From a virus, in the IMG/VR virus record IMGVR_UViG_3300045988_147571: 64,000 nt of DNA; one strand, given 5' to 3'. Below, piece by piece: positions 5,744 through 64,000 of the stretch (positions within the stretch are counted from its first letter, which is position 1; each line of letters starts with the position of its first letter). The position numbers and the translations under genes are program-made. The notes under the pieces were generated by a model. The model was not told the origin of the DNA and did no database searches. It worked only from the letters and a program-made list of their open reading frames with translations.

Positions 5744-6012
5744 AATTGTTCCTCTTTTCTTTTCAGTATTAAATTTCCTAACGTGCTCACTATATCCTTG
5801 CATTGATAATCACGATTATAGAAATCAGCGGAAGAATTATAACGTACTTCATAGTGTTCATCAAAACGTAATCTTGTTGGAAAGTCACAAAGTATATTGG
5901 TTAATTTAATTCCGGTTGCCCATGTGAAACCTTGATTTTGAGCTTCTTTGATTAACGCTATATATTCTGCTTTATTATTCACCAAAACAGTGCACTTTTT
6001 TAAATTTATCAT
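5737..6012 (-). CDS. GFTWA-domain small protein with LILKRK tail
   Basis: ORF track. MINLKKCTVLVNN...AQNQGFTWATG...FPTRLRF is a paralog of 5975..6283. Confidence 0.7.
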   Translation of the reverse strand: MINLKKCTVLVNNKAEYIALIKEAQNQGFTWATGIKLTNILCDFPTRLRFDEHYEVRYNSSADFYNRDYQCKDIVSTLGNLILKRKEEQLC

Positions 6013-6283
6013 TAGCCATTTCCTTTCTAATCATTATGAGCCTTCGCACTCCTTCAATTAAAACCATGCATTCAGGATAATCTCGTGCACGTCTTCCACG
6101 ACTAGAACCATAATATGTATAATAATTTTTTCTAAATTCTAGCCTCGTTGGAAACCTGCAGAAAACTTTATTTAAAGAATCCCCAGATGCCCATGTAAAT
6201 CCTTGCTTCATAGCAATTTTAGTTATAGCCGAATATTCTTTTATATTGTTGACCAATACAGTAGAATCTCTAAGATCAATCAT
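5975..6283 (-). CDS. GFTWA-domain small protein with LIMIRK tail
   Basis: Track ORF 5975..6295. ATG 6283 overlaps the TGA of the unlisted upstream ORF. MIDLRDSTVLVNN...MKQGFTWASG...FPTRLEF. Confidence 0.7.
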   Translation of the reverse strand: MIDLRDSTVLVNNIKEYSAITKIAMKQGFTWASGDSLNKVFCRFPTRLEFRKNYYTYYGSSRGRRARDYPECMVLIEGVRRLIMIRKEMANDKFKKVHCFGE

Positions 6284-6420
6284 TTCCACCCCCAACCTTT
6301 CCAGACGAGCATTTTCTTCAAGTTTTTACACTTAATGAAACTTGGAGTGTATTCCTTTGTCTGTTCGCAATAGCCGAACCATTTACCTGACACATCCTGA
6401 TGAAGTTCAAATACTTTCAT
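6280..6420 (-). CDS. Unlisted 46-aa ORF (MKVFELHQDVSGKWFGYCEQ...WKGWGWK)
   Basis: ATG 6420 lies 10 nt after the AGGAGG encoded by the RRQ tail of 6425..6697. Its TGA overlaps ATG 6283 (ATGA). Below the track size cut-off. Confidence 0.4.
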   Translation of the reverse strand: MKVFELHQDVSGKWFGYCEQTKEYTPSFIKCKNLKKMLVWKGWGWK

Positions 6421-6424
6421 TATA

Positions 6425-6697
6425 TTACTGCCTCCTTGCTATTATTAAATGTTCTAAACTGTTTGCCGGAAGTAGCATTGCATTGTTAAAATACCAAGTT
6501 ATTTCTTCATCATCTATTAATAGATGATATTCATCTAATTCAGGATCTGTAATTTTAGTTATTACACAAACTTTCCCACAAAGTTTATACATGTCTTTGC
6601 TGAACCATAATCTTTCCATTGAATTTTCATAATAGTAATACTGCTCACTATTTAAATCTTTTCTAATTACTACTCTATCTCCGACTTCGTACTTCAT
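6425..6697 (-). CDS. Small tail-motif protein, SH3-like type (paralog array 2)
   Basis: ORF track. MKYEVGDRVVIRKDL, KLCG, W-x-F...ML, LIIARRQ tail (GCA AGG AGG CAG TAA). Confidence 0.75.
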   Translation of the reverse strand: MKYEVGDRVVIRKDLNSEQYYYYENSMERLWFSKDMYKLCGKVCVITKITDPELDEYHLLIDDEEITWYFNNAMLLPANSLEHLIIARRQ

Positions 6698-6990
6698 AAT
6701 TTTTCCTTTCTAATTTCTATAAGCTTTGCTAAACATTGAACAGGTTCTAACATTGTGTCACTAAAAACCCATTCCCTTGCTTCATCTCCCAGTGCTAGCC
6801 TATAGTTCATACAGTCAAAGTGTCGCGATGGAACCTTATCTATGATTTTATACGCATGGCCACAGAATTTTTGCATGTTAACGTTAAAAAACAAATATGC
6901 ATTATCGGCACCATTATAATAATATTTTGAGCCACCTTCCAAGCCACTTCTAACTCTCACTATATCACCTATTTTATATTTCTCTTGCAT
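6694..6990 (-). CDS. Small tail-motif protein, SH3-like type (paralog array 2)
   Basis: ORF track. KYKIGDIVRVRSGL, KFCG, LIEIRKE tail. ATGA overlap with the next gene. Confidence 0.75.
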   Translation of the reverse strand: MQEKYKIGDIVRVRSGLEGGSKYYYNGADNAYLFFNVNMQKFCGHAYKIIDKVPSRHFDCMNYRLALGDEAREWVFSDTMLEPVQCLAKLIEIRKEKL

Positions 6991-7247
6991 ATCAAACTCC
7001 TTAACCCATCAACAGGTATCAGCATTGCATCATTAAATACCCATCTATATTCCTCTTTTCCCAGAGATAATCTATAAGTTATTTGATCACAACCAATTGC
7101 TACTATTTCATACTCTCTTCCACGAAATTTTTCCATTGCCTGAGCAAAATACAACTCCTCTTCATAGAATGGATCTGAAAATGGATAACATCGTCCACCA
7201 ATTAAGTCTGTTCGGACGATTACTCTATCCCCAACTTTATATTTCAT
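6969..7247 (-). CDS. Small tail-motif protein, SH3-like type (paralog array 2)
   Basis: Track ORF to 7265. The likely start is ATG 7247, after AAGAGGAGG. MKYKVGDRVIVRTDL, LICKRN tail. Confidence 0.75.
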   Translation of the reverse strand: MKYKVGDRVIVRTDLIGGRCYPFSDPFYEEELYFAQAMEKFRGREYEIVAIGCDQITYRLSLGKEEYRWVFNDAMLIPVDGLRSLICKRNIK

Positions 7248-33201: not shown

Positions 33202-33273
33202 GTCCGGTTAGTCTAGTGGTTAAGACACTGCGCTTTCAATGCAGTAACATGGGTTCGATTCCCGTACCGGATG
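33202..33273 (+). tRNA. tRNA-Glu (UUC)
   Basis: Hand-folded cloverleaf: acceptor GTCCGGT/ACCGGAT, D stem GTCT/AGAC, anticodon loop CTTTCAA, T-loop TTCGATT. Confidence 0.85.
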
Positions 33274-35163: not shown

Positions 35164-35202
35164 TATTTATACTCCTCAGTTATGCAAAAGAGGTGCTCAA
35201 TT

Positions 35203-35460
35203 ATGGTAAAAAACGATGCTGGTATTTGGGTGCCGGATTATAAAAATATATTTGTTCTCCCGTCTAAAGAAGTTATGGCTCAAAGAAAACTTGATGCCAT
35301 GGAAGAACTAGCGGAAATACGTGCCTGGGGACTACGTAACCCGGTAAAATGGATTGAAACCATGTTTGGTGTAGAACTACTGGACATACAGAAATATGCA
35401 ATTCAAATGTCATGGAATAAAAAATATGCATTATGGTTAGCAACCCGAAACATGGGAAAA
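35203..35460 (+). CDS. terL: Terminase large subunit, N-extein
   Basis: ATG 35203 follows AAGAGGTG. It ends ...LATRNMGK, the first half of the Walker A motif. Confidence 0.75.
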
Positions 35461-36486
35461 GCTTTGGCTTTAGATACTCCTATTCCGACTCCTGATGGAT
35501 ATAAGCTTATGTCTGATCTTGAAGTTGGAGACTATGTATTTGGTGATGACGGGGAACCCACACAGATAGTAAATACCTCTCCTATTTTTTATAACCACAC
35601 TTGCTATAAAGTGTCATTTGAGGATGGAGAAGAAATAATTGCAGATGCAGATCATTTATGGGAGGTAAAAGCCAAAGATTATAGACCTACTATAAGAGTA
35701 CTAAATACCGAACAAATGTCTAATAATTTTGCACATAAGAGAAAAGATGGAAAAGGCATTGAGTACAAATATAGAGTAAAAATAAGTAAACCGTTAGAGT
35801 TTCCTGAAAAGGATCTTCCAATTCATCCGTATGTATTAGGTCTTTGGCTAGGAGATGGATGTTCCGAAGATGGGTATATTACTTCTTATATAAATGATTC
35901 TGTTGACATAATAAATAATATAGAATCTTTTGGCTATTTCGTTTCATCAGTCAAAGACGATTCTGGAAATAATTATAGATTACGAATTCAGGATGAATAT
36001 GGAGTACCGTTAAAGATTTTGTTGCGTGAAAATGACTTATTAAGTAATAAACATATCCCTTATATATATTTTATTGGTAGTACAGAACAACGATTACACT
36101 TGCTGCAAGGTTTAATGGATACTGATGGTTTTGTCGCAGCGAATTCTACTTACTGTGAGTTCTCGCAAAAAAGTGAACGATTAATTATTGATTTTTGTAA
36201 ATTACTTGATAGCTTATCAATTAAATATTCTAAAAAATATAGATCAACTATATGTAATGGTAAATATTTTGATTCTTATAGAATTACCTTCTACTCTTCT
36301 AAAGAATTTCCATGTGTAAAAATGCAAAGAAAATTTGACAGACTTCCTGATAAAACCAGTGAACGTCAGAAATATAAATCTATTGTTAATATAGAAAAAG
36401 TTTTTAGTGTGCCGACTAAATGTATAAGAGTTGATAACGATTCGCATTTATTTTTATGTGGAACTAAGAATACTGTAACGCACAAC
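35461..36486 (+). mobile_element. Intein (342 aa) with LAGLIDADG homing endonuclease, inserted in the TerL P-loop
   Basis: Starts ALALDTPIPTPDG and ends TVTHN|S. LAGLIDADG blocks are LGLWLGDGCSEDGY and LLQGLMDTDGFV. Excision gives NMGK-STLVG, restoring Walker A GKS. Confidence 0.8.
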
Positions 36487-38247
36487 AGTACTCTTGTAGG
36501 TCTTTATATTATGGCACGTACAATGTTAGTAAATAACTGCCGCTGTTATATATGCTCCGGTACAGCTACTCAGTCTGCCGAGACATATTTGAAGATTGAG
36601 AATATAGCTAAAGATAAAATAGAAAGTTTTTTAGGGTTAACAGACATTTATTTAGGTGAAGTAGTTACAACCCCTAACAGTGATGGGTGGATTCATAATC
36701 CTGCAGGTTTTACATATTCTCTTTATAATGGATCTTTTGTAAAAACTATAAATAGTAATGTTGATGCGTCTCGTGGTTTCCGAGCTGAATTATGTGTACT
36801 AGATGAATGTGCGTTTTTAGGAGAAGAGGTATTTCAAGTTATTGAGCCATTTACTGCACAGGATAAAAACTTCAGACTTGGTAAGGATAAATCTGGCAAA
36901 GAAATTGATGTTAAAGCATTACCTAGAGAATTGCCAAACCAAATGTTATACTGCTCTTCTGCTGGAGAAAAAGATGGATTTTTCTATACAAAGTATAAAC
37001 AATACGCACTACAACAAATGTGTGGATCCAGGGATCATATGGTCCTTGATGTTAACTGTGATGTCATGATGAAAGCAACTAAAAATGGTCGTGGTTGTGA
37101 TTTTTCTCTGCTTGACAAACAAAAGGTTGACAATGCAATGCGTGAAAATAAAGAAAAAGCTCTTCGTGAGTATTATAATATATTCACTTCTGATGGCGGC
37201 GCAGATGCCATCTTCAAACGTTCTATGATAGTAAAAAATTCTACTATCCGTCCCCCAATTATGTTTAATGATACAAAAGACAGACTTTTTGCCTTCGCAT
37301 ATGATCCAGCTAGATCTATGGATAACTCTTTTGTCCTTGTTGGAGAATATTATAAAGATTCTTCAGACAATTGGAGAATGCGTATTGCTAATGGTATTAA
37401 TTTTATGGATCTTAGTAAAAAGAATAAAACTCCTATGCGTACGCCTGAACAGGTCAAGAAACTGAAACAACTGATCCTTGACTATAACGGTGATGGAGTC
37501 GATGACTATACAAACATAAGTAATATCTTTATAGATGCTGGTTCTGGTGGTGCCGGTGTTAATATTGCAGATTATCTTATGGAAGATTGGTATGAAGAAG
37601 GACATGAAGGTGAACAGAAATATTTACATAGAGGTCTTATAGATAAAGAACAATCGTCTGATTATGTCAAAAAATTTCCTAATGCTGTAGATAAAATTAA
37701 ATTATTACCGCCTACTATGTATAAATCTATTATCTATGAAGCTGCTATTGAAATGATGAGACTTGATCTCATAGATTTCACTGCTGAGTATGATAATAAA
37801 GGATATTTAACAATGCTAGATATAGACGAAAAAGAAATGGCAAAAGCAAAAAAAGATTTAATTGCTAAGTATAAAGATAAATCTATGTCTAAAGGTGAAT
37901 TAGATCGTTTAGTTGAAGAAGAACTTCAAGAAAGAAATTTGGCCTCAACTAAAATTTATAAACTATCTCCTGATGAGGAACTTGGTCTAGTACAGATTGA
38001 CTCGCTAAAGGAGGAAATGGTTAATATGGTACGAAAGAAACGAGAATCTGGTAAAGATGGCTTTGAACTGTCTACAGAGAAGCAAAACAAATTGCATGAT
38101 GATCGTTCGTATTGTTTCTCAATGCTCTGTTATGGACTCTCAGAACTTCGTAGAGAACATATTAAAAATAAGAAACGTCCCAAAAAAGAAAATATAGCTG
38201 CTGCTATGCCTATTCGTAAAGGTGTAGTAAGAAAAATGTTTAGTTAG
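36487..38247 (+). CDS. terL: Terminase large subunit, C-extein
   Basis: STLVGLYIMA...CVLDECAF (Walker B-like), followed by the nuclease-half region. Confidence 0.75.
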   Translation, partial: STLVGLYIMARTMLVNNCRCYICSGTATQSAETYLKIENIAKDKIESFLGLTDIYLGEVVTTPNSDGWIHNPAGFTYSLYNGSFVKTINSNVDASRGFRAELCVLDECAFLGEEVFQVIEPFTAQDKNFRLGKDKSGKEIDVKALPRELPNQMLYCSSAGEKDGFFYTKYKQYALQQMCGSRDHMVLDVNCDVMMKATKNGRGCDFSLLDKQKVDNAMRENKEKALREYYNIFTSDGGADAIFKRSMIVKNSTIRPPIMFNDTKDRLFAFAYDPARSMDNSFVLVGEYYKDSSDNWRMRIANGINFMDLSKKNKTPMRTPEQVKKLKQLILDYNGDGVDDYTNISNIFIDAGSGGAGVNIADYLMEDWYEEGHEGEQKYLHRGLIDKEQSSDYVKKFPNAVDKIKLLPPTMYKSIIYEAAIEMMRLDLIDFTAEYDNKGYLTMLDIDEKEMAKAKKDLIAKYKDKSMSKGELDRLVEEELQERNLASTKIYKLSPDEELGLVQIDSLKEEMVNMVRKKRESGKDGFELSTEKQNKLHDDRSYCFSMLCYGLSELRREHIKNKKRPKKENIAAAMPIRKGVVRKMFS

Positions 38248-42146: not shown

Positions 42147-42164
42147 TGGAAGGAGGAATACATA

Positions 42165-42625
42165 ATGAAACTTAATTTTTCTAGTAATGAAGTAAGAAAC
42201 ATTTTTGCAGAAAATGATTATGCAGAGTACTCCCAGCTTATGTTTGACACAGCTATGGGAGAAGAAAAAGTATCTACAAAAGATGCTAATGACAAGATCA
42301 GAGAGATCATGTTCTCCGTACTTGGTGTAGATGAAAATTGCACTAAGAAAGAGCTTAGAAAAGCTATTCGTAGACATAAAATTGATGTATTTGAAATCAT
42401 CGAGGAAACAGTAGAGAATCTGCTTGTTTCTGGTTGGGGAGAAAACCCATTCTTCAATGAATTCGTAGAGATTAAATCTATGGCTGATGGTGATACTAAT
42501 GAGTTCTATGTACCGGATGAAGTTATTCTGACAGTGTCTGAACTTGCGGGCAATCACCATGATCTGATCAGACAGCGCCTGGCAGAAGGACAGACATTCT
42601 CTGTTAAAACTTCTTGGTATGGGAT
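42165..42625 (+). CDS. Major capsid protein, exon 1
   Basis: Strong SD. Ends ...FSVKTSWYG-I(2 nt). The track ORF reads on into the intron to 42635. Confidence 0.65.
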
Positions 42626-43866
42626 TAACTTTTAGTCCCCTTAACATTGTGAAATGTTTTGAAATAAATAACGCATTGAATTGCTGGAAAACCTTAAAGC
42701 TAGTTAAACTACAACGTAATCTAAAAAGATAAGCGTGAATGTAACGAAAGTAGAAAAAATTAACTAGATGATACATGGTTCAATCCTAAATATCATGAGT
42801 AATTAGACACCTGTTTATAGGTGTTTTTTATTATGCTCAAAAATAGGCAATCAGCAGCTAAGACTTTTTAAAATGAGTAAAGTTCAACGACTATCTGGAG
42901 ACAGAGTACATATACAAGTGTTTGGTATATGGAAGTGGTGCGCACCCTCGATGGGTGAAGATATAGTCTAATCTTTAGCGAAAGTTAAAGGGCTTTAAGC
43001 CAACACGGAGTAGCGTCCGATTAATATCATTTTTCAAAATAATTATATAAGGAACTATGAATGCAAGAAAAATTATGTGGTATTTATTGTATAAAAAATA
43101 CTTTAAATAACAAAAAATATATTGGTATGTCAAGAGATATAAAACGAAGATGGTCCGAGCATAGAACAGAATTAAATAGCCACACTCATGTTAATCAATA
43201 TTTACAATCTGCATGGGATAAGTATGGTAAATCAAATTTTAAGTTCTATGTTATTGAGTTATGTGAAGAAGAAAAACTTAGTGAACGTGAATGTTATTAC
43301 ATACAATTATATAAATCTTTATCTCATGAAAATGGATACAATTTAACAACTGGTGGTGAAAATACATCTATTGGTAAATCTGTTATATATTTGAAAGATG
43401 GAACGATTTATAACTATGTAAACGAAGCTGCTCAAGAAGCTAATGTTCAGTCCGTAACTATGATTAGTTGGTGCCGCAAGAAACATAACTATATGTATTT
43501 AGATGAATATAACACTCTTTCTAAAACAGAAAAAGAATACTGGAAAAATTTTAATTGGGAAGAATTTGACCATCAAAAATTAAGTCAAGCACATTCTCGT
43601 GAAAATCTCTCAAGGGTCACAATAAACAAATTAAGTCAAGCTACATCTGGAGATAATAATCCAAGAGCACTTAAAGTTTATTGCCCACAGCTAGATGAAA
43701 CATTTGATTGTATAAAATATGCCTCTGACAAATATGGAGTTAATAGAAGTAGCATATCTTCGTGTCTTAAAGGAAGACTTAAAAGTGCCGGTAAGCATCC
43801 CGTTACCGGAGAAAAACTAACATGGGAAACAGTTGAAAAATGATATTGAATTGTTAAATATAAATG
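42626..43866 (+). mobile_element. Group I intron in the major capsid gene
   Basis: P1 pairs exon GGGAU with 42635..42639 GUCCC (U-G at the splice site). P10 pairs exon-2 UAAAA with 42630..42634 UUUUA. P7 is GACUA 42889 / AGAUAUAGUC 42959..42968. The terminal G is at 43866. The spliced frame reads WYGIKIYAEYELFMAGRIDW. Confidence 0.8.
43061..43843 (+). CDS. Intron-encoded GIY-YIG homing endonuclease
   Basis: CGIYCIKNTLNNKKYIGMSRDIKRRWSEHR...YYI...GYN, plus C-terminal DNA-binding repeats. Confidence 0.8.
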   Translation: MQEKLCGIYCIKNTLNNKKYIGMSRDIKRRWSEHRTELNSHTHVNQYLQSAWDKYGKSNFKFYVIELCEEEKLSERECYYIQLYKSLSHENGYNLTTGGENTSIGKSVIYLKDGTIYNYVNEAAQEANVQSVTMISWCRKKHNYMYLDEYNTLSKTEKEYWKNFNWEEFDHQKLSQAHSRENLSRVTINKLSQATSGDNNPRALKVYCPQLDETFDCIKYASDKYGVNRSSISSCLKGRLKSAGKHPVTGEKLTWETVEK

Positions 43867-44485
43867 TAAAATTTACGCAGAATATGAGCTGTTTATGGCA
43901 GGTCGTATTGACTGGGCTGGATTTGTACAGAAAATCTATGAAGCCTTTGATAAGAAAATCAACGATATGGTATATGCAGCTGTAATGGCAGCAGGTGAGA
44001 AGGTTCTCCCGTCTACACAGTTTAATAAGACAGGTACACTTTCATCAACAACAAAAGATGAGTTTATGACTCTGATTGAAGATGTACAGATGGCTACAGG
44101 TGATGAAGTAGTTGTTATGGGTACCAAATCTGCTCTTGCAAAACTTTCTGCTATGGAAGATATCACTTGGGTATCTAATGAGATGAAAAACGAAAGACAT
44201 ACTACAGGTCGTTTAGGTCTGTTTGAAGGTATTCGTCTTGTTGAAATTCCTCAGAGATTTGCAAATAATGATACAACTACTAAGTTAGTAGATAATACTA
44301 AGCTTTTGATTATGCCAGTAGCTGATAATAAATTTATCAAGATCTACAATGAAGGCGACGCTCAGATTAAAGAAGTATCTGATGGAAATACAAATATGGA
44401 TAAAACTATTGAGTATGAATATCAGCTTAAAATGGGTGTAGCTACAATTATTGGTAAACGATTTGGAGTTTGGACACTCAAATAA
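43867..44485 (+). CDS. Major capsid protein, exon 2
   Basis: The frame is open from 43850. Exons 1 and 2 total 1080 nt, an in-frame 359 aa. A strong hairpin follows. Confidence 0.65.
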
Positions 44486-51159: not shown

Positions 51160-53694
51160 ATGGCTGATTATACAATACAAGTAGGCGTAGAAGTTGAAGA
51201 TAGTAAATTGGATGCGCTGGAAACACGAATTAATTCATTAAAAGATAAACATGTTAAACTCAATGTGGATTTTGGTAATAGTAAGCAGTTGGCTAGAAAC
51301 GCTCAGACAGCGGTAAAAACTATTAATAAAGCTACTGTAAAAGCTGCCAAAAACAGTCCTTCAATTAAGGGGGCCAATCTTGTAGAACAAATGGTTGATC
51401 CCGAAAAAGCTTTAAAAGCAATGTCTAGTACAGTTGGCAAGCTATCTAAATATCAGGGAAAACTTGATTTAGGAGAAGTAAGACTTTCAGTTAATCAAGG
51501 GATTATGGGAGAACTAGATGGTCTTCTTAGTAAATTAAATGAAATTAAAGCAACTGCTAAGAACATGGGATCCATCAAACTTACTGTTGGTGATAATATT
51601 AAAACACAAGACGGTAAAATAGTTGTTGGATCAAATAGCAGTGCCTCTACTGGTTCTGTCAGATCATCTGGACTAACACTTAGACAAGCGCAGGCCGAAA
51701 TCAAAAAAAATATGAAAACCATTGGTACTTTACAAGAACAGTATATCAATGGTCATGTTGATGAATCTACATATAGACAGTCAAAAAAAACTATAGGACA
51801 AAGAAATGCTTATTTAGCAAGAATGGTGCAAACTCAAGGTACTGCTTCTGACTGGGTTACTTCTGCTACTGATTTTAGAGAAGCTCAAGCCAAGAATCGA
51901 GCTGCCTATAGAGAGATGATGTCTAGTGCTGATGCCTATGATAAAGTAATTAGTGATTTGGGTGAAAAACAAAAAACATTTAATGAAGCTGCTCAAGTAT
52001 ATAATTCTAACAGTAGAAGTCCATTAAATAAGACTTTAGGACCCGGATATCAAGCAAGGCTTACAGCTTTTAATGATGTCTATGGTCAATTAAAAGAGTC
52101 ACATGATAAAATCTCCACGCTTACTGGAGATGAAAAAGATCTTGAAAAAGTACGTTTCAGCGCTCTTAAATCTGAAGCTAATCGTCAAGCCAGACAGCTT
52201 AATAATGTGAGTCAGTTTTTCTCAAAAACTCCAAATAAATATAGTAGATCTGAATTTGTAGGTACAGACTTAGATGTGACTTCTGATAAAGTTCAGAATA
52301 AAATGTCACAAATGGTTGATAATCTTGCTAATGGCAGTAGATATACTAAAGAATTTAATGCAGCACAAGGAAAAATGTATGCTACAATAGACAGAGGCTC
52401 TGGTGTATTTGAAAAATATCAGCTTGCATACAAAAATGGGCCAGGTAATATCGATCAGTCTCTTAGCAAAGTCACTCAGAGCGTAAAACCTCTTTCTAGT
52501 TACATTTCTGAAATGGGACAAAAGTTCCGTAGTCTTAGCCAGTATCTTATCAGTAATTTCGGATTCCAAGCTTTAACAACAGGTATCAGATCAGGTGTTA
52601 CATCTATAAAAGAATTAGATTCAGCAATGACTGAATTAAAGAAAACCTCTGAAGGTACAAAACAGGAATATAGAGACTTTACTACTCAAGCTAGGAGTGA
52701 CGCTAAAGATATCGGTAGTACGACTACTCAGATTACTAATAGTGCTGCTGATTTCTCACGTCTTGACTACACACTTGGCGAATCTCAAACTCTAGCTAAA
52801 AATACTGGTATATTAAAAAATGTATCAGAATTTGAGTCTATAGATGATGCAACAACTGCTATGATTTCTATGATGAAAGCATATGATGTAAAAGTTGATG
52901 ATTCTATGGATCTCATTGATAAAATGAATCTTATTGGTAACAACTATGCAATTTCTACAGATGGAATTGCTACCGCTTTACAAGATTCAGGTTCAGCATT
53001 GGTAGCAGCGGGAAACGACTTTGACAAGTCAGTTGCTCTTGTGACGGCTGCTAATAGTGTAGTACAGGACCCATCAAAGGTAGGCGCTGGTCTTAGAACA
53101 ATTGCTTTACGACTTAGAGGCACTTCTGCTGAAGAATTATCTTCTATGGGTGAAGATACAGAAGGTCTTGTAGAGACCACTTCTAAACTTAATTCAAATA
53201 TTAAATCTCTTACTGCCGTTAACGGTAAGGCTGGAGTTTCTATTCTTGATATGAATGGAAACTATAGAGATACTTATGATATTTTAAAAGATATCTCTCA
53301 GGTTTGGGATGATATTGGTAAGCAAGATTTGGCAGATGGTCAGAATAGACAGGCTGCTCTGCTTGAAATGATGGCAGGAAAAAATAGAAGTAATATTCTT
53401 GCATCCATATTACAGCATCCTGAATTACTTACAGATGTTTATAATGATTCCGCAAATAATTATCAAAATTCAGCTCAGAACGAGCTTAATACATACCTTG
53501 ATTCTATCGAAGCAAAAACAACTAAAATTAAAGAATCTTGGTCACAGTTATGGCAATCAGAAGGTAGTACTAATACTTTTAAAGGATTGCTTGATATTGG
53601 CAACGGCGCTGTAGGACTCTTAAATGGTTTAGGACTCAATAAAACCTTAGCCGGAGTCGGCGGTATGCTTGTTAGCCATGCTATGAACTGGGGT
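51160..53694 (+). CDS. Tape measure protein, exon 1 (845 aa)
   Basis: GTGAGGTGAG SD. Long coiled-coil sequence. The track ORF reads 27 nt into the intron. Confidence 0.7.
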
Positions 53695-54114
53695 GGGACA
53701 AATTATCAGTTGGTCCTTTAGAAAACGCCCCATGTAACCTGGTGGTGACACGGAACGATCTCATATGAGAAAGGGGTTACTAAGCAAACAACCGAAACTG
53801 TCTTTATTCGAAGGAATAGAGAAATGCTTTTAATTTGGCATTCAGGGTGAACCGAAGTATATACTACTCCCCTATTACAGTAATGTAATAGGTATAGTAA
53901 CAACGTATATATATGGGTAATCTGCAGCGAAGCTTCTTTATTTTATAGAGAAGAACGTTCATCGACTATAATGGGAACTTGGTCTCCGGATCAAGAAGGA
54001 ATAGTCAGGACTGTTAGGCAGCTTACGCCGAATAAATTAAAGGGTAAATACATCTTACTCTTGTAAGCAATCTTACCTTATGTGCAAAGGTGATGTAAGC
54101 ACAAAAGCAAGAGA

Positions 54115-54225
54115 TTACTCTCCTGCTTCTTTATGTTTAATATAATATGTACAATCTTCATTTTCAAAGTAAGGACATTCCTCTTCCTTACATTCTTTGT
54201 AGAGAGGACATTCTAATATTTCCAT
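54115..54225 (-). CDS. Unlisted 36-aa Cys-rich peptide (MEILECPLYKECKEEECPYFENEDCTYY...)
   Basis: ATG 54225 lies 9 nt after GGAGGT. It is the third gene of the antisense cassette. Confidence 0.4.
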   Translation of the reverse strand: MEILECPLYKECKEEECPYFENEDCTYYIKHKEAGE

Positions 54226-54300
54226 AATCTTTAAACCTCCATAGTATAGTTTTGTTGACTGTCTAAAAGAAATTATTGATTAATTTTCAGAATATAACCT

Positions 54301-54852
54301 TTAATGATTTAAAAAACATTGATCTAACTCTAATAATATTTTTTCCAAATCATCTATATTGATAATAAGAAAAAATTTTCCTTTATGATCTTCTCTAATA
54401 TCTTCGTCTTCAAATTGTATAGCTTTTATTTCAGTACTTGCGTTATGAGTTAATGGATGAATCATTAAACGATCATGGCAGACAGCATTCCTTAAATGTT
54501 TAATTACATTTCTTTCACAATTATTTTCTTTGTATGTGTTTTTATAGATCTCATTATACGTCTTATTAGTGAGTCTTTTTAATGTAGGCACATTCTGAAA
54601 ATTATCTTTTCTATTAGATAGATAATTAAAATATTTCTCTTTTGGAAAAACAAGTAACCCCAAAAAAGAATTTATTAATTGAGTGACCTCATAACATTTT
54701 TGATACTCAAATTCATTGGCAAACATAATTCTTTTTAAACAAGAAATCTCTTTATTTTTATTATGTCCAGCTAATTTTTGAATCATGAAATAATTCATTT
54801 GTGTCCTACAAATAAACTCTTTAACATAATCATCATCTTTAAAATTACTCAT
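54301..54852 (-). CDS. HEPN-domain protein (Rx4H motif)
   Basis: NVIKHLRNAVCHDRL contains R-N-A-V-C-H. EVTQLINSFLGLLVFPKE resembles stand-alone mobile-element HEPN families. Confidence 0.6.
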   Translation of the reverse strand: MSNFKDDDYVKEFICRTQMNYFMIQKLAGHNKNKEISCLKRIMFANEFEYQKCYEVTQLINSFLGLLVFPKEKYFNYLSNRKDNFQNVPTLKRLTNKTYNEIYKNTYKENNCERNVIKHLRNAVCHDRLMIHPLTHNASTEIKAIQFEDEDIREDHKGKFFLIINIDDLEKILLELDQCFLNH

Positions 54853-54858
54853 AAACTA

Positions 54859-55362
54859 TCACCAAGTATATCCACAAGAGTTACACTTAAAGCTCTTGTT
54901 AATCTTCTTACTGAATAATCCCAATATTCCTACTGATACCATACGTTCTCCTGTAGAGATTTTACGAATATTGGTGGAACCACATGTTGGACACTTAGGC
55001 CCAGTAGAGAATTTCTGAGCATTCTGTTTGGCATACCACTGGTCTGTTATCCTGTTTTGCTCTTCTATTCCTTCAGGAGATTCACTATATTTTCTTTTTT
55101 TAACGGCAGAGTAATCTACTTCATTGTCTAACTTTCCATAAAAATATTTTTGCCTAAATATCTCAGATGATTCCAAATGACTAGGACAATGACCATCATG
55201 AGTTTTCTCATATTCTTTTGATAGCTCCATATATGCTGTAGACCAATCAATGCCAGTACCTATATAAGTTCCAGTTTCACAGGTATAACATTTATCTCCT
55301 ATTTTATAAGAAGAAGATGTACTAGTCTTTCCACATTTATTACAAAATAATAATTCTTCCAT
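54859..55362 (-). CDS. Double zinc-ribbon protein
   Basis: N-terminal CNKCGK...CYTC and C-terminal CPTCGS...CNSCG. AAAGGAA SD. Confidence 0.6.
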   Translation of the reverse strand: MEELLFCNKCGKTSTSSSYKIGDKCYTCETGTYIGTGIDWSTAYMELSKEYEKTHDGHCPSHLESSEIFRQKYFYGKLDNEVDYSAVKKRKYSESPEGIEEQNRITDQWYAKQNAQKFSTGPKCPTCGSTNIRKISTGERMVSVGILGLFSKKINKSFKCNSCGYTW

Positions 55363-55403
55363 ATTGTTCCTTTTTATTATATATAGTAATTAAGATTAGC
55401 TAT

Positions 55404-55432
55404 ATTATATCACACAGTTTGGTTTTCGCCAA
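55404..55432 (-). promoter_or_regulatory. Antisense promoter straddling the 3-prime splice site (TTGGCG-17-TGaTATAAT)
   Basis: Minus sense reads TTGGCG aaaaccaaactgtgtga TATAAT. The -35 lies in exon 2 and the extended -10 in the intron. Confidence 0.5.
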
Positions 55433-58400
55433 GAATGAAGATGGAGAAATTTTACCGCAATCACGAAGAGCTCAACGTAATGCTGCTATAGCGAAAGGTT
55501 ATGTAGAAGCCAATAAAAATTGGCAAGCATATTCAGATGATTTAGAAGTTCTTAAAGAGCTTAACAAGCAACTTGATAATAATGGTCAGGCCATTACAGA
55601 CAACGAGCAACGTATGGCCAAAGCAAATGAAGTAACGAAGAATGCTAGTCAAAGAGCTAAAGATTATGGTAAACAAATGGCCACTAATGCTAAGACTCTC
55701 ACTGATTTTAAAAGAGAAAATGAGGTAGAGAAACCTGATCAACAGAAACAAGGGAAATGGTCCGATGGTCTAAAAAGTATGGCATCTGCAGGTCTCTCAA
55801 TGATTGGCAATGCTTTTATTTCCGCTGGTGTTGGAATGCTTGTGCAAGGAGCTTTCTCATTGCTTGGTAAAGGCATTGACGCTTTCGTTCATAAAAATGA
55901 GAACTTAATTGCTAAAGGTCAAGAAGCAAAAGAATCCATTCAATCCCAAACTAAAGCCTATGAAGACCAGAAAGCATCTCTTGGAGAACTTACTTCCAAA
56001 TACACAGAATTATCTAAAGGCGTAAAAATATCTGGTAATTCTATTAAAAATATTAGTCTTACAGATGATGAATATAAGGATTTCTTAAATACAAGTAATC
56101 AGATTGCTGCCGCAGCACCTAGTCTCACACGTTCATGGGACTCCCAGGGTAATGCCATTCTTAATGCTGGGACTAATGCTGAGGATTTAAACACTCAGAT
56201 TAATGATTACTTGAAGTTACAGAGGAACCTTACTTACTATGATACTAAGAAAAATATTAGTAATCAGTATGAGGGATATGAAACTGCTTTAGGTACTAAC
56301 GAGCGTCAAAAAAATGATTACAAAGATAAATATGATGCAGCAAAATTTAAAGTTAATTCTATGCAGAATTTTTCGAATATGCTTAAAAAGCAAAAAAAAG
56401 GAGAAGATACCTTTAGCTACACATTGGATCAAGCTGCATATGATGCACTCGGCAATACCTTTGGAAAAGCAATAAAAAACTATACACAATCTGCTGATGG
56501 TCAAACAATAACTTTGGAATTTGATGGCAAACAATTAGATTTTCTTAACAACGAAGCAGCCAACATATTAAGTTCTGATAGTAGTGAACTTCAAGAAGCT
56601 CATACCAATTTAGTTAATACACAAGAATCTATAGATGCAGCAAAAAGAGAAATGGTTTCTTCTATCAAGTCAATGGCAAGCACTATTGATTCTTTTGATA
56701 GCTGGGACGATCAAGATAAAGCATCAGAATTTCAATCACAGTTGAATAGTATGCTTAATTCTACGGACAATACCAGATTGCTTAATGATTTTAAAGAATC
56801 CGGTAAAGATATGGACACATGGCTTCGCAATAACATTGTGAACCCTATGTCAACTGCAAATTCAGATGAACAAAAACTTTGGGAACAAGCATTTGAAATG
56901 GAGCCTAAAGATAAAGAAACAGTTCAAGAATTTGCCGCTCGTAGAAATAATCTTTTCGATCAGATTGCTGCTATTTCTGACAGTGATTTTTGGGATAGAG
57001 ATACACTTGGAGAAGCTTTTGGCTTTAACCATACAGAATATGATGATAATGGAAAAGCTGAATTTGTATGGGAAAATCAAGATAAGTTAAATCGAATACA
57101 AGACGCATTGAAAAATGCAAAAGCCAGTAAAACAAAAGGCGATGCTTCTGATGTAAGAACAGATCTTAATAATATGACCCCTGATGAGTTGGACATAGCT
57201 GTACAAGTTATTACTGACTCAGATGCTTTAACTTCTATAGATTCTTTTTATGAGGCATTCGAAAAGGCTAAACAAGCAGCTAAAAATATGAGTGATCAGG
57301 CAGCCGTTTCTTTAGATTCAATGGAAACTAAAGTATCAACTGCTAAGTCTACTCTTTCTTCTATGGGAACTATTCTTACAGAGACTACTTCTGCAGGCGG
57401 AGTTTCTAAAGACAATGTTAAGATTCTTTCTACTGCTTTCAAAAATGTGAAAGACCCTCGTGGCATTGAGCAAAATGTTAATGATTTATTCACCACTACT
57501 TCTGATGGTATCAAACTAAACATAGATGCTTTGAAAACCTTTACGGAATATCAGACTGAAGCCACTGATGGAGATTTCGAAAAGGGTATTAAGTTACAGA
57601 CTAAAGCTATTGCCGAGCAAGCAGAAGAAACAGATAAAGCTTGGAAAGCTATTGCTAAAGCCGATGACAAGGAAGCAGCTAGAGCAACTTATAACGCAGA
57701 AAAAGATAAATTAAAAGATGCTAGAAACGAATATTTATCTTATATGCAATCTCAGTCTGAATGGCAAGCAACTAAGAAACAGCAACAGGAACTTCTTTCT
57801 TATTATTCTCAGTGGCAACGTGCCCAGAGTACGGAGAATGCCGGAGATAAATATAATAACATTGTTGCCGGACTAAAAAATGCTAAAGATGCATATGATA
57901 AAGGTCTTGTAGGTACAGATGATTTTAAATCATTTGCTGCTCTTATTTCTCCTACAGGTTCAGATGATAGAGCAAACTTTGCAGAGAATTATGGTAAAGC
58001 TGTAAGATACCTCACAGAAGATAAGACAGGTGTTAATAATTTCTTAGCTGATCTTAAATCTAAGGGTATGGCATCTTATGATGATGCAAGTAAAAGATGG
58101 TCATTTGACATAGATGATATGAGTAAAGCCGCTCGATCAATGGGAATCAGCAAAGAATTCATGAGTGCTAACTTCGGTCGTCTTCGTGATTATGGCATTG
58201 ATAATAATTTTATATCATCTACAGAAGAAGGTATAGATAGGGTTCAGGAACTTACTTCTGCTCTTTCAGACGAACAAAAACGACTTGAAGAATTAAAGAA
58301 TACGGATAGCACCAATACTACTGCTATTACTGCTTCTGAGGACAAAGTTAATAAATATAAACAGGATTTAAAAGAAACCTATGATAATATGGGTGACTAC

Positions 58401-61400
58401 TCTGAAGATGCTGCACAGACTGCTGTTGATAATTTTAATTCGGCAGCAATGGGTGTACAATCATATCAGAATGCAATAGAAAATGTTAAAAAGAATGAGA
58501 ATCTGACAGAAGCTCAAAGAACTTCTGCAATTAATCAATTAATAGCTAAACAGGAAGAATTAGCTGCCACTTACGGTACTACTGTTAAAGAATTATTAGG
58601 AGCAGATGTATCTTCATTAATGGATGGCATTATAACAGATTCTGCTTCTGTTACTACTGCTCTTGATGGTATCAATAAAGCATATGAAGAACAGAACACA
58701 GATGTTACTTCTTTAGTTGACACTCTTGGAAAATATACTTCTGAACAGTTAGAAGGTATAGATTTCAATGATGGTAAGTGGGATACTGAATTAGGCGATG
58801 CTGAAAAAGCTGTTGAGTCTTTATGTGAGAAGCTTGGTTTAACAAAAGACCAAGCTCGTTCTGTTATTGAGGCTTTAAAAGAAGCTGGTAAATTAAAAGA
58901 TTCTGAGGAAAGTAGTGATTCCTCTAAAGAAACTACTAAGGGGTCTTGGGAGAAACCACAGACTGCTGAACAGATGGGATTCGGTGATGATCCTGACAGA
59001 GCTGCTGAATATACACATTCATTGGAAGCTCTTACTGCTGCCCATAAAGAAAATGATGCCGCTACTGAAAAGTCATTTGAAACCCTTTCTAAATATAATC
59101 GTACACAATTAGAGGGTATCAAATTAAATGATGGTGCTTATAATGTTGAGGGTATAGAACAGGCTGAAGATGCCATACAACAGTTAGCAGATAAGACTCA
59201 GTTGTCTAAAGATCAGATTCTTACTGCTCTTGAAGGTCTTGGTGTTTTGAAAGTTAATGCTCCTACTATGGATGCGACAAAAGGTTTGGAAGATTTAGTT
59301 TCTGAGGCTAAAGATGCACAGGACGAATTGTCTGATCTTACTGGTAAAACATACACATTTGATTTTGATACTACTGATTTAGATACTGCTCATAAACAGG
59401 TAGCTGACCTGCAGGAAGAAGTAAATAAATATAGAGATCGTGATGGTAAATACCATCCAGAGATTACTGGCGGAGAACAGGTGCAATCAATGTACAAAGC
59501 CGCTATTGCTCAAGAACAGAATGCTGAATATAGTTCTTCTGCTATTGGACAGTCTAGTTTATCATCAGATGTCGTACAAGCTGCTCAAGATTTTATGACA
59601 GCTAAGAATGAAATGGATCAGCAAACTCAACTTTATCAAAATGGAATGGATAATACTCTTGATAAAGCTACAGAGAAAGCTAACGCCGCATTTGAATCTT
59701 TACAACAAGCTCAAACTGATTCGGGTATTGAACTTGTAGATACTAATAATATTCAAAAAGCTGAAAATCAGTTACTTTCTATGACTGATAAAGATTTACA
59801 GGCTAAAATAGATGTTCAAGCAGATACAAGCGATGCCGAAGCAGAATTAGATGTCCTAGAAGAATTGGACGGATCTACACTTAAGCTTACTTGCGAATTA
59901 TCGGATGAAGATAGTTTTGAACGAGCTAAATCTGCTATTGAATCTATGCCAGCTAACACCGTTACAACCGTAGATATGGAAGTTAATGGTGAAGAGGATG
60001 TAGAGAAAGCAACAGAGCTTATTGAATCGGCACCTACTGATGGTACTGAGCTAGTTGTTAACTGTCATGTTGATAATGCTGAAGACTTAGATAAAATAAA
60101 TGAAGCTGCTGCAACTGCCAAAGCAAACGGAGCAAATATTAAAATAAACGCTACTGTTGGTGAAGTGGATGCTTCAACTGCTACGAGTACAGAACCTGTT
60201 AAAATGACAGGTGAAATAGAAAGTGCAGAATATACTGGCGCTCCAGTTGAAATAGAAGCTACAGCAAATATTACTAATGTGACTAATGGTGATTCCGCAG
60301 AAGTTAATCCTACAATAAATACGGATGAAGTGGATAACTATACTGTCGATGACAAAGAAGTAAATGTTGATTTTAAAAAGAATTCAGATGAAGTTGATAA
60401 TTATCAACCGGACGATAAAGATGCAACTGCCTATTATGGAGTAGATTCTTCAGCACCAGATAGTTATCAGCCGAGTGATAAAGATGCATATATCACGTAT
60501 CATATACGTGTTGAAGGAGGAATAGCTGCTGGCATTCCAAATAGTCCTTCTGGAGGATCTGGTGGTTCTTTTGCTACAGGTACAATGGCATCAGTTGCTC
60601 GTGCAGATGGTACAATGTACAATGCACCTTGGAACTATCAACTTCTCTCTTCTGCTTTTGCAAAAGGAGATGCTGCTTTACATAAAGACGAAAAAGCGTT
60701 AGTAAACGAAGTCGGGACCGAATCTATTGTGCGTGACGGTACTTGGTTTACGATTCCTGGCGGAGCACATCTTGAGAATCTTAAAAAAGGAGATATTATT
60801 TTCTCTGCTCAACAGACTAAAGATTTACTTGAACATGGCGCAACACCGGGACATGCTAGAACTTATGCACAAGGCACAGCCCCAGGATTAAGTATCTCTC
60901 CTGCTTTCTCATCTGGTTCTAGTTCTTCTACTAACACAGAATTAGATAACAAAATCAAAGAAGTTAGTACTCAGGCAAAAGACTGGATAGACGTAGCTCT
61001 TGATCGTTTAGAGAGAATCGTTGAAAAATACAAAGACACTGCTGAAAGTGACTATTCCAACTATAGAGCTTCTATTAAGGCTTACAATTCAGCACTTAAA
61101 AATCTTAAAAACCAATTAAAGACTCAAAAAGATTCCAGAGCAAAGTATGTAACTAAAGCAGACGAAGTCGCTTCTGCTGTCGGATTGTCTGACGATTTAA
61201 AAAAGAAGGTTCAAAATGGTACTATCAATATAGAGAACCTGTCAGAAGATGATAAAAAACGTGTTGATGCATATCAGGAATGGTATGAAAAAATCTTAGA
61301 CTGTGACAAAGCTATACGTCAGCTCACTATTTCGCAGAAAGATTTAGCTAAAGCTAAAGTTGATCGGGTTACTGAAGCTTATGACACTGTTATAGGCAAA

Positions 61401-64000
61401 CGTGAAAGTAAAGCTGAATATTACAAAGCAAAACAGGAATTAAGAATCACTCAAGGTTACAATCAGAAACCTGGATCTATTTATGAGAAGTATATAAAAA
61501 ATGAACTTTCTTATACTAATAAACAGAAGAAACTTACTGATAAGGAAATAAAAACCTATAAAGGTAAGATGAAAGAATATCTTGCAGAAAATGGTCATAA
61601 AACTGTTGATCCTGAATATCAGAAAATGAAGAAACAGCTTTATGATCTGGAAACCTCAGCTGTTAAATTAGAGAATGAAGCCGCACAGTTAAGACAGGCT
61701 CTACAAGATAATCGTGAACAGATTAAACAATGGGCGGTTGACCGTTGGGAAAGAGCTGGTAGTAAACAAGATGCAGTAATTAATTATAAGACTGTTTCTG
61801 ATGATCCAAACTATCAGATCAAGGAAAAGGATTACACTGAGAGAATCAAAACAAATAATCGTCAGATTATAGCTTTACAGAAGTTGAGAGCAGAAAAAGC
61901 TGAGTACTATGACAGTTATTTTAAGAGCGGAAACAACGAAGAAGCTCAGAAATATCTTGAAGCTATTGCTCAGATTGACGAACAGATTCTAAAACTTGGA
62001 GCTAGTACAGAAGAGTTAAAGAATCAAATCATGGAACTTCGTTGGAAGCCATTTGAAGATATTCAAGATGACCTTTCTAATGTAATCAGTGAGTATCAAA
62101 CCATGCAGAAGCTTCTTGGTGATACAGAAAGTTTCTACAATGACGATGGATCTTTCACTGAAAATGGTTTGACAAATATCCTTCTTTTACAGGAATCTAT
62201 TGATGTTACTAAGCAGAAAATAGCTAACTATAGAGAAGCTTTAGACAAACTAGATGAACAGTATAAGAATGGTTGTTATAGTCAGGAAGAATATACTGAG
62301 AAATCTAAAGAGCTATTAAACGGATTACAGCAAGAGTCTGCTGCCCTCTCTGATTTGCAACAGAATATGCTTACAATGTATGAGACTCAGGTTAAAACTG
62401 AGAATGATCTCTTACAGAAAAATATTGATAAGCGTTTGGAAGCTCTTGATGCTAAAGAGAAGTATTATGAGTATGATAAGACTTTGAAAAAGAAGTCTAA
62501 AGATATTAATACTCTGAAGGCACAGATAGCAGCCCTTGAAGGAACAAGCAATGCTGCTGCCAAAGCCCGTTTAGAAAAATTAAAGGCTGAATTAGCAGAA
62601 TCTGAAGAGGATATGCAAGATACTGTTCATAATCATGAAACTGAAATGAAGAAAACAGGTTTTGAGAATCTTCAATCAGATGCTGAGAAAGCTCTTGATA
62701 ATACCTTAGATGCACTGAAAAAGAATACCAATTTTCAGCAAGCAGTTATTGGTAATATGTTATCCAATGTAACTGCTAATTATGATAGTACCTATAGTCA
62801 TCTGCATGATGTTATGGATCAATATGGAGTACAGGTGTCTACTACATTTGATAAGATGATTACTAAGTCTGCTAATTTTAATACGTCCTTAGTAGCACAG
62901 ACTAAAGCTATGCAAGATGTTATTAATATGGCTACTAAACTTCCTGCCAATCTTGGCGGGACTGCTACTGACATTGTAAATAATACTGCTAAAGTTAATG
63001 GTACTTCAACCGGAGCCGGTAATGTAACGCCGGGAAAAGTAAATGATACGACTTACTCTCTGAAGTTAAATGCATCAGAAATTTATCTAACATACAGTCA
63101 TTTGAAATATTCATTGAAAGCTACATGGTCTCCAAGTAAACCGGAACACTCTGATATTGAATGGTCGAGTACAGATAAATCAGTTGCAAAGGTCTCAACT
63201 TCTGGTGTTGTTACAGGTGTAGCTGCGCCACTTAGTAAACTTGGATTAATGTCAAGAGATGAATCTTTGACTAGAAAATGTAAGATTATTGCAAATGGTG
63301 GTCCGGGTCTTGCAAAAGCTGAGTGTACGGTACATATTATGCCAGATGAACATTATAATGCCATTAAGCAATATGCTGATAAAGTTGGCATCGATACTTC
63401 TAAAGAAGGCAATAATCTTAGAGATGCTATGGAATACGCTTATAAAAATGGTGCATTCCGAAGCAATCAGTCAAGTACCGCTGTTGAAGGATTCCAGAAA
63501 GCTTATCTAAAAGACTGGTTTAATGCTCTTCCAGACCGTCCTAACGGTGCAACGGATGTTCCTAGTGGAGTTAGTCAGCTAGCTGGATATTTCTATTCCA
63601 AAGGTAAACAAGTCACACGTAATGATATGCAGAAACTTGCTGATATCCTTCAGATTAAAACTCCGGGAGTTGGAAGTTATGATACCTGGGGTGGCACACT
63701 TAAAAATAAGATTCTGAAAGCATACAAAGCTTATGGTTATGCTACTGGTGGCGTAATCAATAGACTTGTTCCTGCCAATATGGAAACACTCTTAGGTAAA
63801 GCAATCATCTCCAATGGAGATCAAGGTTTTATTGGCGCTAAAGTTGGAGAAACCGTAATGACTGAAGAGTTCACTCGTTTGCTCAAACCTTCTATTGCTG
63901 CAATGAGCGACTTTACCAATATGTTTAACCCAACTACTCCTATTGCTACCACAAATAATGATTATTCTATCAACAATGAGGTAAACATTAATGTAGCAAG
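55422..64000 (+). CDS. Tape measure protein, exon 2 (at least 2859 codons, open at the right edge)
   Basis: This frame starts VFAKNEDGEILPQ. It has no listed ORF because no stop falls in the window. Spot-translated at 55.4, 60.5 and 63.9 kb without stops. A Big_2-like segment lies near 63.0-63.2 kb. Confidence 0.7.

Follow-up and report, generated by a model that had tools for sequence, protein, structure and literature searches.

Three minus-strand genes, one of them for a HEPN-family protein, in the 3' arm of a group I intron of a phage tape-measure gene

How does a late structural gene of a phage come to hold three small genes on its opposite strand, and what could they do there? This question is raised by IMG/VR record IMGVR_UViG_3300045988_147571, a viral record analysed here as a stretch of 64,000 nucleotides (nt) that is called the window and whose positions serve as coordinates. 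In its tape-measure gene lies a cassette of three minus-strand open reading frames (ORFs) for a double zinc-ribbon protein, a HEPN protein and a four-cysteine peptide. The cassette is located within a group I intron, in a region whose gene content varies between related phages. It may represent an accessory locus of the prophage comparable to a moron, in which the HEPN protein would be a latent ribonuclease (RNase). The features are collected in Table 1.

Table 1. Positions of the tape-measure exons, the intron elements and the cassette features in the window
Feature	Position	Strand	Remarks
Tape-measure exon 1	51160..53694	+	845 codons; PhageMin_Tail-type N-terminal part
P1 exon strand UGGGGU	53689..53694	+	5' splice site after U53694, which makes the U.G wobble
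Group I intron	53695..55421	+	1727 nt, phase 0
Ribozyme core	53695..54100	+	P7 GACUA 53964-53968 / UAGUC 54002-54006; P8 hairpin 53978-53996
Internal guide sequence GAAAAC-GCCCCA	53722..53733	+	P10 part 53722-53727, P1 part 53728-53733
Hairpin over the stop codon of the peptide gene	54104..54129	-	possible terminator, not of the clean intrinsic type
Four-Cys peptide gene	54115..54225	-	36 amino acids (aa); C6, C12, C17, C25; constant, at the core-proximal edge of the cargo region
Exchangeable HEPN module	54255..54986	-	about 730 nt: zinc-ribbon codons ~126-167 (type A ribbon), HEPN gene and short spacer
HEPN protein gene	54301..54852	-	183 aa; pEK499_p136 family
R-N-A-V-C-H motif	54475..54492	-	within the HEPN gene; L-R121-N122-A-V-C-H126
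Double zinc-ribbon protein gene	54859..55362	-	167 aa; constant component, adjoins the 3' splice site
Putative promoter, sigma-70 type, TTGGCG-17-TGaTATAAT	55432..55404	-	promoter scan; upstream TG
3' splice site	55421..55427	+	terminal intron G (omega G) 55421; P10 exon strand GUUUUC 55422-55427
Tape-measure exon 2	55422..64000	+	at least 2859 codons, runs off the window

The tape-measure gene is, as judged from helix pairing and covariation, interrupted by a genuine group I intron. For comparison, 42 related loci were gathered from metagenomes and IMG/VR through homologs of the HEPN protein (53-94% identity) and of the tape-measure protein. The gap between the exons is spanned by 38 of them, which amount to 28 distinct sequences including the window. 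In all 28, the end of exon 1 pairs with the P1 part of the internal guide sequence at six of six positions. In the same way, the P10 part pairs over 1.3 kb with the first six nucleotides of exon 2, again 6/6 in every relative checked, and the terminal intron G is kept in all relatives. Two diverged loci, L003 and L004, show a compensatory variant of P10 (GAAAAU with an exon 2 start of AUUUUU), their exon proteins being 37-51% identical, and in the much more distant locus L042 P1 has become GAUGGU/GCCAUC and P10 AAAUAU/AUAUUU. A single guide sequence thus forms both P1 and P10 and covaries in diverged relatives, which fixes the borders of the intron. The predicted ligated-exon junction joins AACUGGGGU to GUUUUCGCC, and the predicted spliced protein reads in phase from ...HAMNWG into VFAKNEDGE...

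Moreover, the core DNA is conserved even where the flanking proteins are down to about 40-50% identity. An RNAalifold consensus of 10 core sequences comprises 128 pairs, 20 of them with compensatory double changes, and predicts P1 independently. P7 and P8 were located by full-length alignment to the Rfam group I model RF00028 despite a sub-threshold score, and two P9-type hairpins follow P8 and end at about 54100. Weak Rfam group I matches at the same place in the window and in L001 (21.5 bits) also speak for the intron. They appear only in narrow searches: whole loci searched at E<=0.1 gave nothing, and in L003 and L042, where no group I match was obtained, the intron was recognised by alignment and the P1/P10 logic. 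Guanosine-dependent self-splicing is predicted from this architecture, and the 3' splice site, 1.3 kb past the core, would be selected by P10 and the terminal G. The cargo region could be closed by base pairing at long range between AUCUUA (54066-54071) and UAAGAU (55392-55397), two stretches that are invariant among the relatives and so carry no covariation signal.

Both exons match one continuous protein of another phage, the 2528-aa tape-measure protein of Brevibacillus phage Sundance. The exon-1 ORF encodes 853 aa, continuing into the intron up to a stop at 53719-53721, and its residues 205-837 are colinear with Sundance residues 485-1084. Downstream, a stop-free frame of at least 2891 codons (55326..63998) contains exon 2, and residues 2297-2417 of this frame align with Sundance residues 2083-2207, colinear with exon 1. 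On the homologous tape-measure gene of relatives, PF10145 was matched. No intron-less allele was found among the related loci. When 5.8 billion proteins were searched with the spliced junction peptide, each match covered one half only; the matches that were read are public protein calls that stop or start inside the intron.

The whole cassette is situated in the 3' arm of this intron, between the P9-type hairpins and the 3' splice site. A first-pass annotation, made by reading the letters of the window, had described three minus-strand ORFs antisense to a late structural gene, with 6 nt between the zinc-ribbon and HEPN genes and 75 nt between the HEPN and peptide genes. This arrangement was recovered from the sequence, and the antisense position inside a tape-measure intron is confirmed by the P1 and P10 helices, the covariation of the core and the colinear exons. 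Among the relatives, variable sites at codon positions 1, 2 and 3 number 38, 24 and 69 in the zinc-ribbon gene, 35, 27 and 55 in the HEPN gene and 10, 10 and 25 in the peptide gene. The three ORFs therefore vary mainly at third positions, which identifies them as real coding genes rather than conserved intron RNA. In addition, the peptide gene is preceded by a GGAGG ribosome-binding site, and its 13 distinct coding sequences in relatives give just 5 distinct proteins.

Judging from the relatives, the region between the core and the 3' splice site is a variable cargo bay bounded by two constant genes. All 38 gap-spanning loci carry the 36-aa peptide gene as well as the zinc-ribbon gene, which always adjoins the 3' splice site, and L042 also has a zinc-ribbon gene, of 112 aa, antisense and next to the 3' splice site. 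The distance between the exon matches ranges among relatives from 1664 to 4900 nt, and the HEPN gene occurs in 8 of the 26 gap-spanning contigs that are anchored on the tape-measure gene. Alternative cargo includes a 100-aa membrane protein, a 305-aa Cys-rich protein and a further small zinc-finger protein, as well as sense-strand ORFs of 154, 51 and 56 aa. The idea that the three genes form one dedicated unit is not supported: in relatives other genes, some of them on the opposite strand, separate the zinc-ribbon gene or the HEPN gene from the peptide gene.

Other tenants of the bay were also observed. In about half of the relatives, the 154-aa sense ORF (phrog_33355, function unknown) and the 51-aa ORF separate the core from the peptide gene, for instance at gap positions 733..1197 (+) of L010, and the presence of the former accompanies a different C-terminus of the 36-aa peptide. 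A protein of 219-225 aa with an HExxH motif (FIHEITHIYQ / FLHEHIHILQ) recurs in the bay of L031/L033, L002 and L003/L004; it has no Pfam or PHROG match and may be metallopeptidase-like. Within the same intron, L003 (12352..13168) and L004 (12322..13138) carry on the tape-measure strand a pair of genes for 77 and 196 aa. The 196-aa protein matches PHROG 1758 'acetyltransferase' and no Pfam family, and the pair could be toxin-antitoxin-like, with a GNAT toxin as a guess from the PHROG match only.

The HEPN gene itself is part of a module that, as the comparison with the closely related HEPN-less locus L040 indicates, is exchanged by recombination, one breakpoint falling within the zinc-ribbon gene and the other a short way upstream of the peptide gene. 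From 54987 upward, that is in zinc-ribbon codons 1-125, the promoter and exon 2, the two loci are 99% identical. Between 53434 and 54254 the identity is 92-95%, apart from a stretch of about 13 nt at 54106-54118, and throughout the module that lies in between the two loci are unrelated. The guanine-cytosine (GC) content of the module is 24-25% vs 31-41% in its flanks.

The 183-aa protein is, by profile match and motif, an HEPN protein of the pEK499_p136 family. Pfam PF18736 'HEPN pEK499 p136' matches it with E=2.6e-15 and 56.9 bits (gathering threshold 26.6) over profile positions 5-144 of 152. N122 and H126 of the Rx4H motif are invariant in 20 homologs down to 29% identity, and R121 is nearly so, with one K. 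The AlphaFold2 model (pLDDT, the predicted local distance difference test, 88; pTM, the predicted template modelling score, 0.84) is mainly helical with a small beta element. The Rx4H HEPN assignment of the first-pass annotation is thereby upheld, and so is its remark that an MNT partner is missing: by Pfam neither neighbour of the gene has a nucleotidyltransferase domain, and none was found in the cassettes of the relatives. RNase activity is predicted from the family motif. To our knowledge, no member of the pEK499_p136 family has been characterised biochemically. Among distant relatives, one is encoded in a type I restriction-modification operon, flanked by its two methylase genes, and another beside a WYL protein, both devoid of a zinc-ribbon neighbour. 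This is consistent with the description of pEK499_p136 HEPN members within restriction-modification operons (Anantharaman et al. 2013, PMC3710099).

The zinc-ribbon protein consists of an N-terminal ribbon (C7/C10/C25/C28), a helical middle and a C-terminal ribbon (C124/C127/C160/C163). Its four CxxC pairs are invariant, all matches to Pfam zinc-ribbon families are sub-threshold, and its AlphaFold2 model has a pLDDT of 82. It belongs to a very large family, with 329 homologs at 90% clustering and, in a profile search of 1.84 billion representatives, 3414 clusters (50% identity) at E<=1e-3 and 1347 at E<=1e-10. The only Foldseek match among the viral structures of BFVD was another uncharacterised member of the family, and the ten longest members listed show no informative domain fusion. 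An identical protein in GenBank (DAR15972.1) is automatically labelled 'transcription factor IIS-like'. The family occurs outside introns as well. For instance, L078 (4427..6905) and L081 (4001..7057) are small resolvase-bearing elements with SprT-like proteins and tandem arrays of 2-3 zinc-ribbon paralogs, in which type A (see below) comes first, then type B, followed by a 399-aa protein of unknown function; these elements have neither a tape-measure gene nor a HEPN gene.

The 36-aa peptide is found on more than 1000 public contigs and matches no family in Pfam, PADLOC, PHROG or NCBIfam. None of the three cassette proteins has a match in PHROGs or NCBIfam, and no homing-endonuclease or maturase domain (LAGLIDADG, GIY-YIG, HNH, His-Cys, PD-(D/E)xK, Vsr-type) was detected in them with Pfam and NCBIfam. 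In the collection of cultured and deposited phages, no near-DNA match to the region was found and tblastn gave no match to the HEPN protein or to the splice-junction peptide; the sole match to the zinc-ribbon protein was one unannotated faecal contig.

Regarding the phage, the window encodes P22-antirepressor and Bro-N domains, the relatives carry the SPbeta-type structural domains YomU_Tube, YomW, YonB and DUF6558, and members of the HEPN and peptide clusters are found on bacterial contigs that reach 618 kb, Blautia obeum (CUN85430.1) being among the sources. These features point to a widespread temperate phage of human-gut Firmicutes, an SPbeta-like siphovirus.

A promoter of its own, with the -35 hexamer in tape-measure exon 2, had also been proposed for the cassette. 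In the promoter scan, the -10 hexamer falls within the final 18 nt of the intron, and exon 2 holds the -35 hexamer. In such an AT-rich stretch, promoter-like sites are as common as in shuffled sequence (10 found vs 10.4 expected), so that the credibility of this promoter comes from conservation, none of the 16 distinct 3' ends of the relatives deviating from TATAAT. This makes the proposal plausible, and the same conservation could instead reflect a constraint on the 3' end of the intron. At the other end of the cassette, the minus-strand fold of 54075-54130 reaches -20.6 kcal/mol (z=-3.97), a stability attained by 0 of 200 shuffles; the hairpin in Table 1 was not reported by the terminator scan.

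Taken together, these observations would fit, with a probability of about one half, a moron-like accessory locus that is expressed in the lysogen and whose HEPN protein serves as a latent RNase in prophage defence or in the exclusion of competitors. The sigma-70-type promoter that straddles the 3' splice site would drive the minus-strand cassette and would keep it on while the late operon is silent, either in the lysogen or in early infection. Splicing would strip the cassette from the tape-measure mRNA and, because of this removal, we infer that an essential structural gene could carry it at no cost. The HEPN protein would then act as a latent RNase in prophage-mediated defence or against competing phages, and the zinc-ribbon protein would primarily be a constant gene of the intron locus rather than a dedicated antitoxin. 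The signs by which morons and hotspots can be recognised in sequence, namely a conserved promoter consensus, a distal hairpin, variable presence of the cargo gene (HEPN in 8/26) and deviant GC, are all found here. The restriction-modification operon and the WYL protein around or beside distant members of the HEPN family would support an association with defence. An exclusion or anti-competitor role is plausible.

Several results weigh against this interpretation. RF00028 matches the core at 53794-54028 with 25.4 bits only, the gathering threshold being 50 (E=9e-4 in a 2.5-kb search). Foldseek against the PDB and a sequence profile search of the PDB gave no significant match for the 183-aa protein or its zinc-ribbon neighbour, the matches being generic zinc-ribbon or chance ones, and none of the three cassette proteins has a match at E<=1 in PADLOC-DB v2. 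Moreover, the cargo model lacks an account of how a solo HEPN protein stays harmless. Finally, the perfect association of the type A ribbon with the HEPN gene and the kept 6-nt spacing are explained by hitch-hiking no better than by a dedicated pair.

This last point leads to the main rival explanation, which is possible yet doubtful: the type-A zinc-ribbon protein and the HEPN protein would be a dedicated toxin-antitoxin or abortive-infection pair that moves as a unit, the former neutralising or gating the RNase. Two types of C-terminal ribbon exist, type A ending in ...KSFKCNSCGYTW and type B in ...GKTYQC.QCGAKF. In the main clade, distinct loci with HEPN have type A (9/9), whereas those lacking it have type B (17/17), and in two further type-A genes a HEPN gene or a truncated gene follows in the same position after 6 nt. 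This 6-nt spacing is kept in the window, L001, L083 and L084, and the exchanged module includes the type-A ribbon. HEPN variants of 198 aa also argue for a pair: a remnant of a type-B ribbon (LGKTYQCCKCGAKF) is fused to their C-terminal end, a scar which implies that a type-B gene received ribbon A and HEPN in one insertion. Such variants were seen in L002 (10001..10597) and L014, where they end in ...CPHLGKTYQCCKCGAKF, the last type-B ribbon residues being fused in frame. In addition, the tandem zinc-ribbon paralogs of the resolvase-bearing elements resemble arrays of orphan immunity genes.

On the contrary, the zinc-ribbon protein is conserved in all HEPN-less relatives, and its N-terminal two thirds, about 125 residues, assort independently of HEPN: relative to the window, the HEPN protein of L007 is 98% and its zinc-ribbon protein 67% identical, and in L001 the values are 76% and 96%. 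In L003/L004 it is a type-B protein that precedes a longer HEPN homolog, L078 and L081 have type-A proteins but no HEPN, and the HEPN relatives elsewhere have no zinc-ribbon neighbour. The co-segregation may also stem from one insertion and a linkage of only about 130 nt, and this explanation is rated as it is because linkage and function are inseparable with the present data. The earlier view of the zinc-ribbon protein as the partner of HEPN may hold in so far as its C-terminal ribbon co-segregates with the HEPN gene as type A; against it, the protein exists without HEPN and its N-terminal part recombines independently.

A further, speculative reading is held here to be rather improbable. The 3' arm would be a selected defence or competition island anchored by recombination and switched on, through the promoter that overlaps the 3' splice site, while the late genes are silent, the zinc-ribbon protein a modular antitoxin or sensor whose C-terminal ribbon is matched to the next effector, and the intron would be kept by its cargo and not by homing.

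It is unlikely that the cassette serves the lytic cycle, in which early transcription by the host polymerase would provide for takeover or counter-defence, the HEPN protein cutting host or rival RNAs and the zinc-ribbon protein acting in anti-restriction. A host-type promoter would indeed fire early in infection as well, the universal zinc-ribbon protein and peptide look like core phage functions, and the former has a weak sub-threshold similarity to the ribbon of the restriction-alleviation protein Lar. However, every one of these hints is under family thresholds, a variable, low-GC and swappable HEPN module suits accessory cargo better, and the other contexts of the HEPN family are host defence loci.

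Still less can be said for a cassette that works for the intron itself, as an addiction module, a splicing or maturase-like factor, or the source of an antisense RNA that would silence the tape-measure gene in lysogens by blocking splicing; this is very unlikely. Even in L042, whose intron is very diverged, the zinc-ribbon gene abuts the 3' splice site, the intron is fixed across the clade with no homing endonuclease, and the minus-strand RNA would be antisense to 1.3 kb of the pre-mRNA. Nevertheless, most copies of the intron have no HEPN gene, which for this reason cannot explain retention. The suggestion of the first-pass annotation that the cassette is a selfish-retention or addiction module for the intron is not supported: HEPN is present in only 8/26 contigs, the intron, the zinc-ribbon gene and the peptide gene are in all 38 gap-spanning relatives, and no intron-less allele was found among them. 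In addition, the zinc-ribbon family occurs outside introns, the three proteins are devoid of homing-endonuclease or maturase motifs, and the predicted minus-strand transcript would start about 24 nt inside the intron (near 55397), which would leave the splice site uncovered.

Finally, it is hardly credible that no splicing occurs and that 853-aa and >2860-aa separate tail proteins flank an ordinary intergenic moron beside a dead intron remnant, as gene callers, which annotate two genes, the second with a TTG start, and the sub-threshold Rfam score would have it, because compensatory changes maintain the complementarity of P1 and P10 in three lineages, the core covaries, exon 2 has no ATG or Shine-Dalgarno sequence of its own and the Sundance homolog is one continuous protein.

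The prophage accessory locus that is favoured here can be compared with several known systems. In phage introns such as that of T4 nrdD/sunY, the ribozyme core is at the 5' end and an ORF lies in the 3' arm. The cassette intron shares with them, and with a second intron of the window (42617..~43845), a core that comes first, a distant 3' splice site chosen through P10, P9.0 and the terminal G, and coding DNA in the insertion-tolerant 3' arm. It differs in that those introns encode a homing endonuclease on the sense strand, whereas the cassette intron encodes none and its genes are antisense, with a putative promoter of their own.

Accessory and defence hotspots flanked by conserved genes are a feature of P2 and P4 prophages. 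Like these and like morons, the cassette has a probable promoter of its own, an orientation opposite to the late genes, a deviant GC content and a variable content between conserved flanks that is exchanged by recombination. Hotspots and morons are located between genes, whereas this one would be inside a self-splicing intron of an essential structural gene.

With regard to the HEPN protein, the locus resembles the type VII HEPN-MNT systems (HepT/MntA) in the position of a small HEPN gene immediately after a small upstream gene. It departs from them through the absence of an MNT partner and through an upstream double zinc-ribbon protein that also exists without HEPN. Pfam family and Rx4H motif are those of pEK499_p136, the family to which the protein belongs; the PrrC-type latent RNases of restriction-modification operons are a further close comparison. 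Here, the HEPN gene has no restriction-modification, Pgl, ART/Macro or NamA neighbours; it lies in a phage intron and follows a zinc-ribbon gene.

Group I introns in tape-measure genes have been described in prophages of the Bacillus cereus group (Tourasse & Kolsto 2008, PMC2504315). The cassette intron is likewise of the group I type, is predicted to be self-splicing and interrupts the tape-measure gene of a temperate Firmicute phage. The opposite-strand genes, equipped with a predicted promoter, and the variable slot set it apart, and no report of such cargo was found for the B. cereus-group introns. Moreover, PhiPA3 gains an advantage over co-infecting phages from its intron endonuclease gp210 (Birkholz et al. 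2024, PMC11620839). By analogy, the HEPN gene of the cassette would be an intron-borne competition weapon, as the first-pass annotation had suggested, here as a candidate only. The two are not homologous, since gp210 is a homing endonuclease that acts on DNA and the candidate is a predicted HEPN RNase unrelated to intron mobility.

In the literature, no paper was found that links group I introns with HEPN genes in phages, nor any report of a self-splicing intron with an antisense, self-promoted and recombinationally variable accessory locus. Tape-measure introns, the HEPN family and morons are each known, and their combination is apparently unreported. Phage group I introns are usually seen as selfish DNA kept by a homing endonuclease; yet the cassette intron has none and is fixed in a clade of temperate phages from the human gut that is both diverse and abundant. 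Provided that the cassette is expressed and of use, introns could offer accessory or defence genes a safe place to land within essential genes, which would explain the retention of endonuclease-free introns and would provide a new genomic niche in which phage defence and counter-defence genes may be found. In that case, the HEPN-positive and HEPN-negative alleles and the type A and B ribbons would also constitute a natural test system for two uncharacterised families, the HEPN family and the very large double zinc-ribbon family.

Further interruptions of tape-measure genes were noticed among the relatives. Upstream of its cassette intron, L042 has a second one (5712..6998) with a 307-aa Cys-rich ORF that contains a Vsr-like 'GDFWH' motif and has no Pfam match; it is probably a second intron with an endonuclease. 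In L044 (Clostridioides phage LIBA2945, 29332..29655) the tape-measure homolog is split into an 'ATPase' and a 'hypothetical protein' 323 nt apart, and one tblastn match bridges both annotated genes, which makes this a candidate unannotated intron in a cultured phage.

Elsewhere in the window, the second group I intron is a strong one on the plus strand (Rfam 71.3 bits at 42617..42990). It encodes on the sense strand a 260-aa GIY-YIG/NUMOD homing endonuclease (43061..43840), splits the ORFs 42147..42632 and 43850..44482, and is a canonical mobile intron that forms an in-genome contrast to the cassette intron. A 1027-aa ORF (35164..38244, +) contains a LAGLIDADG_3 domain at residues ~309-381 and may be a structural or packaging gene that harbours an intein or has a homing endonuclease fused to it. 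A tRNA gene (33202..33273, +; Rfam 65.2 bits) is located just upstream of the late gene block.

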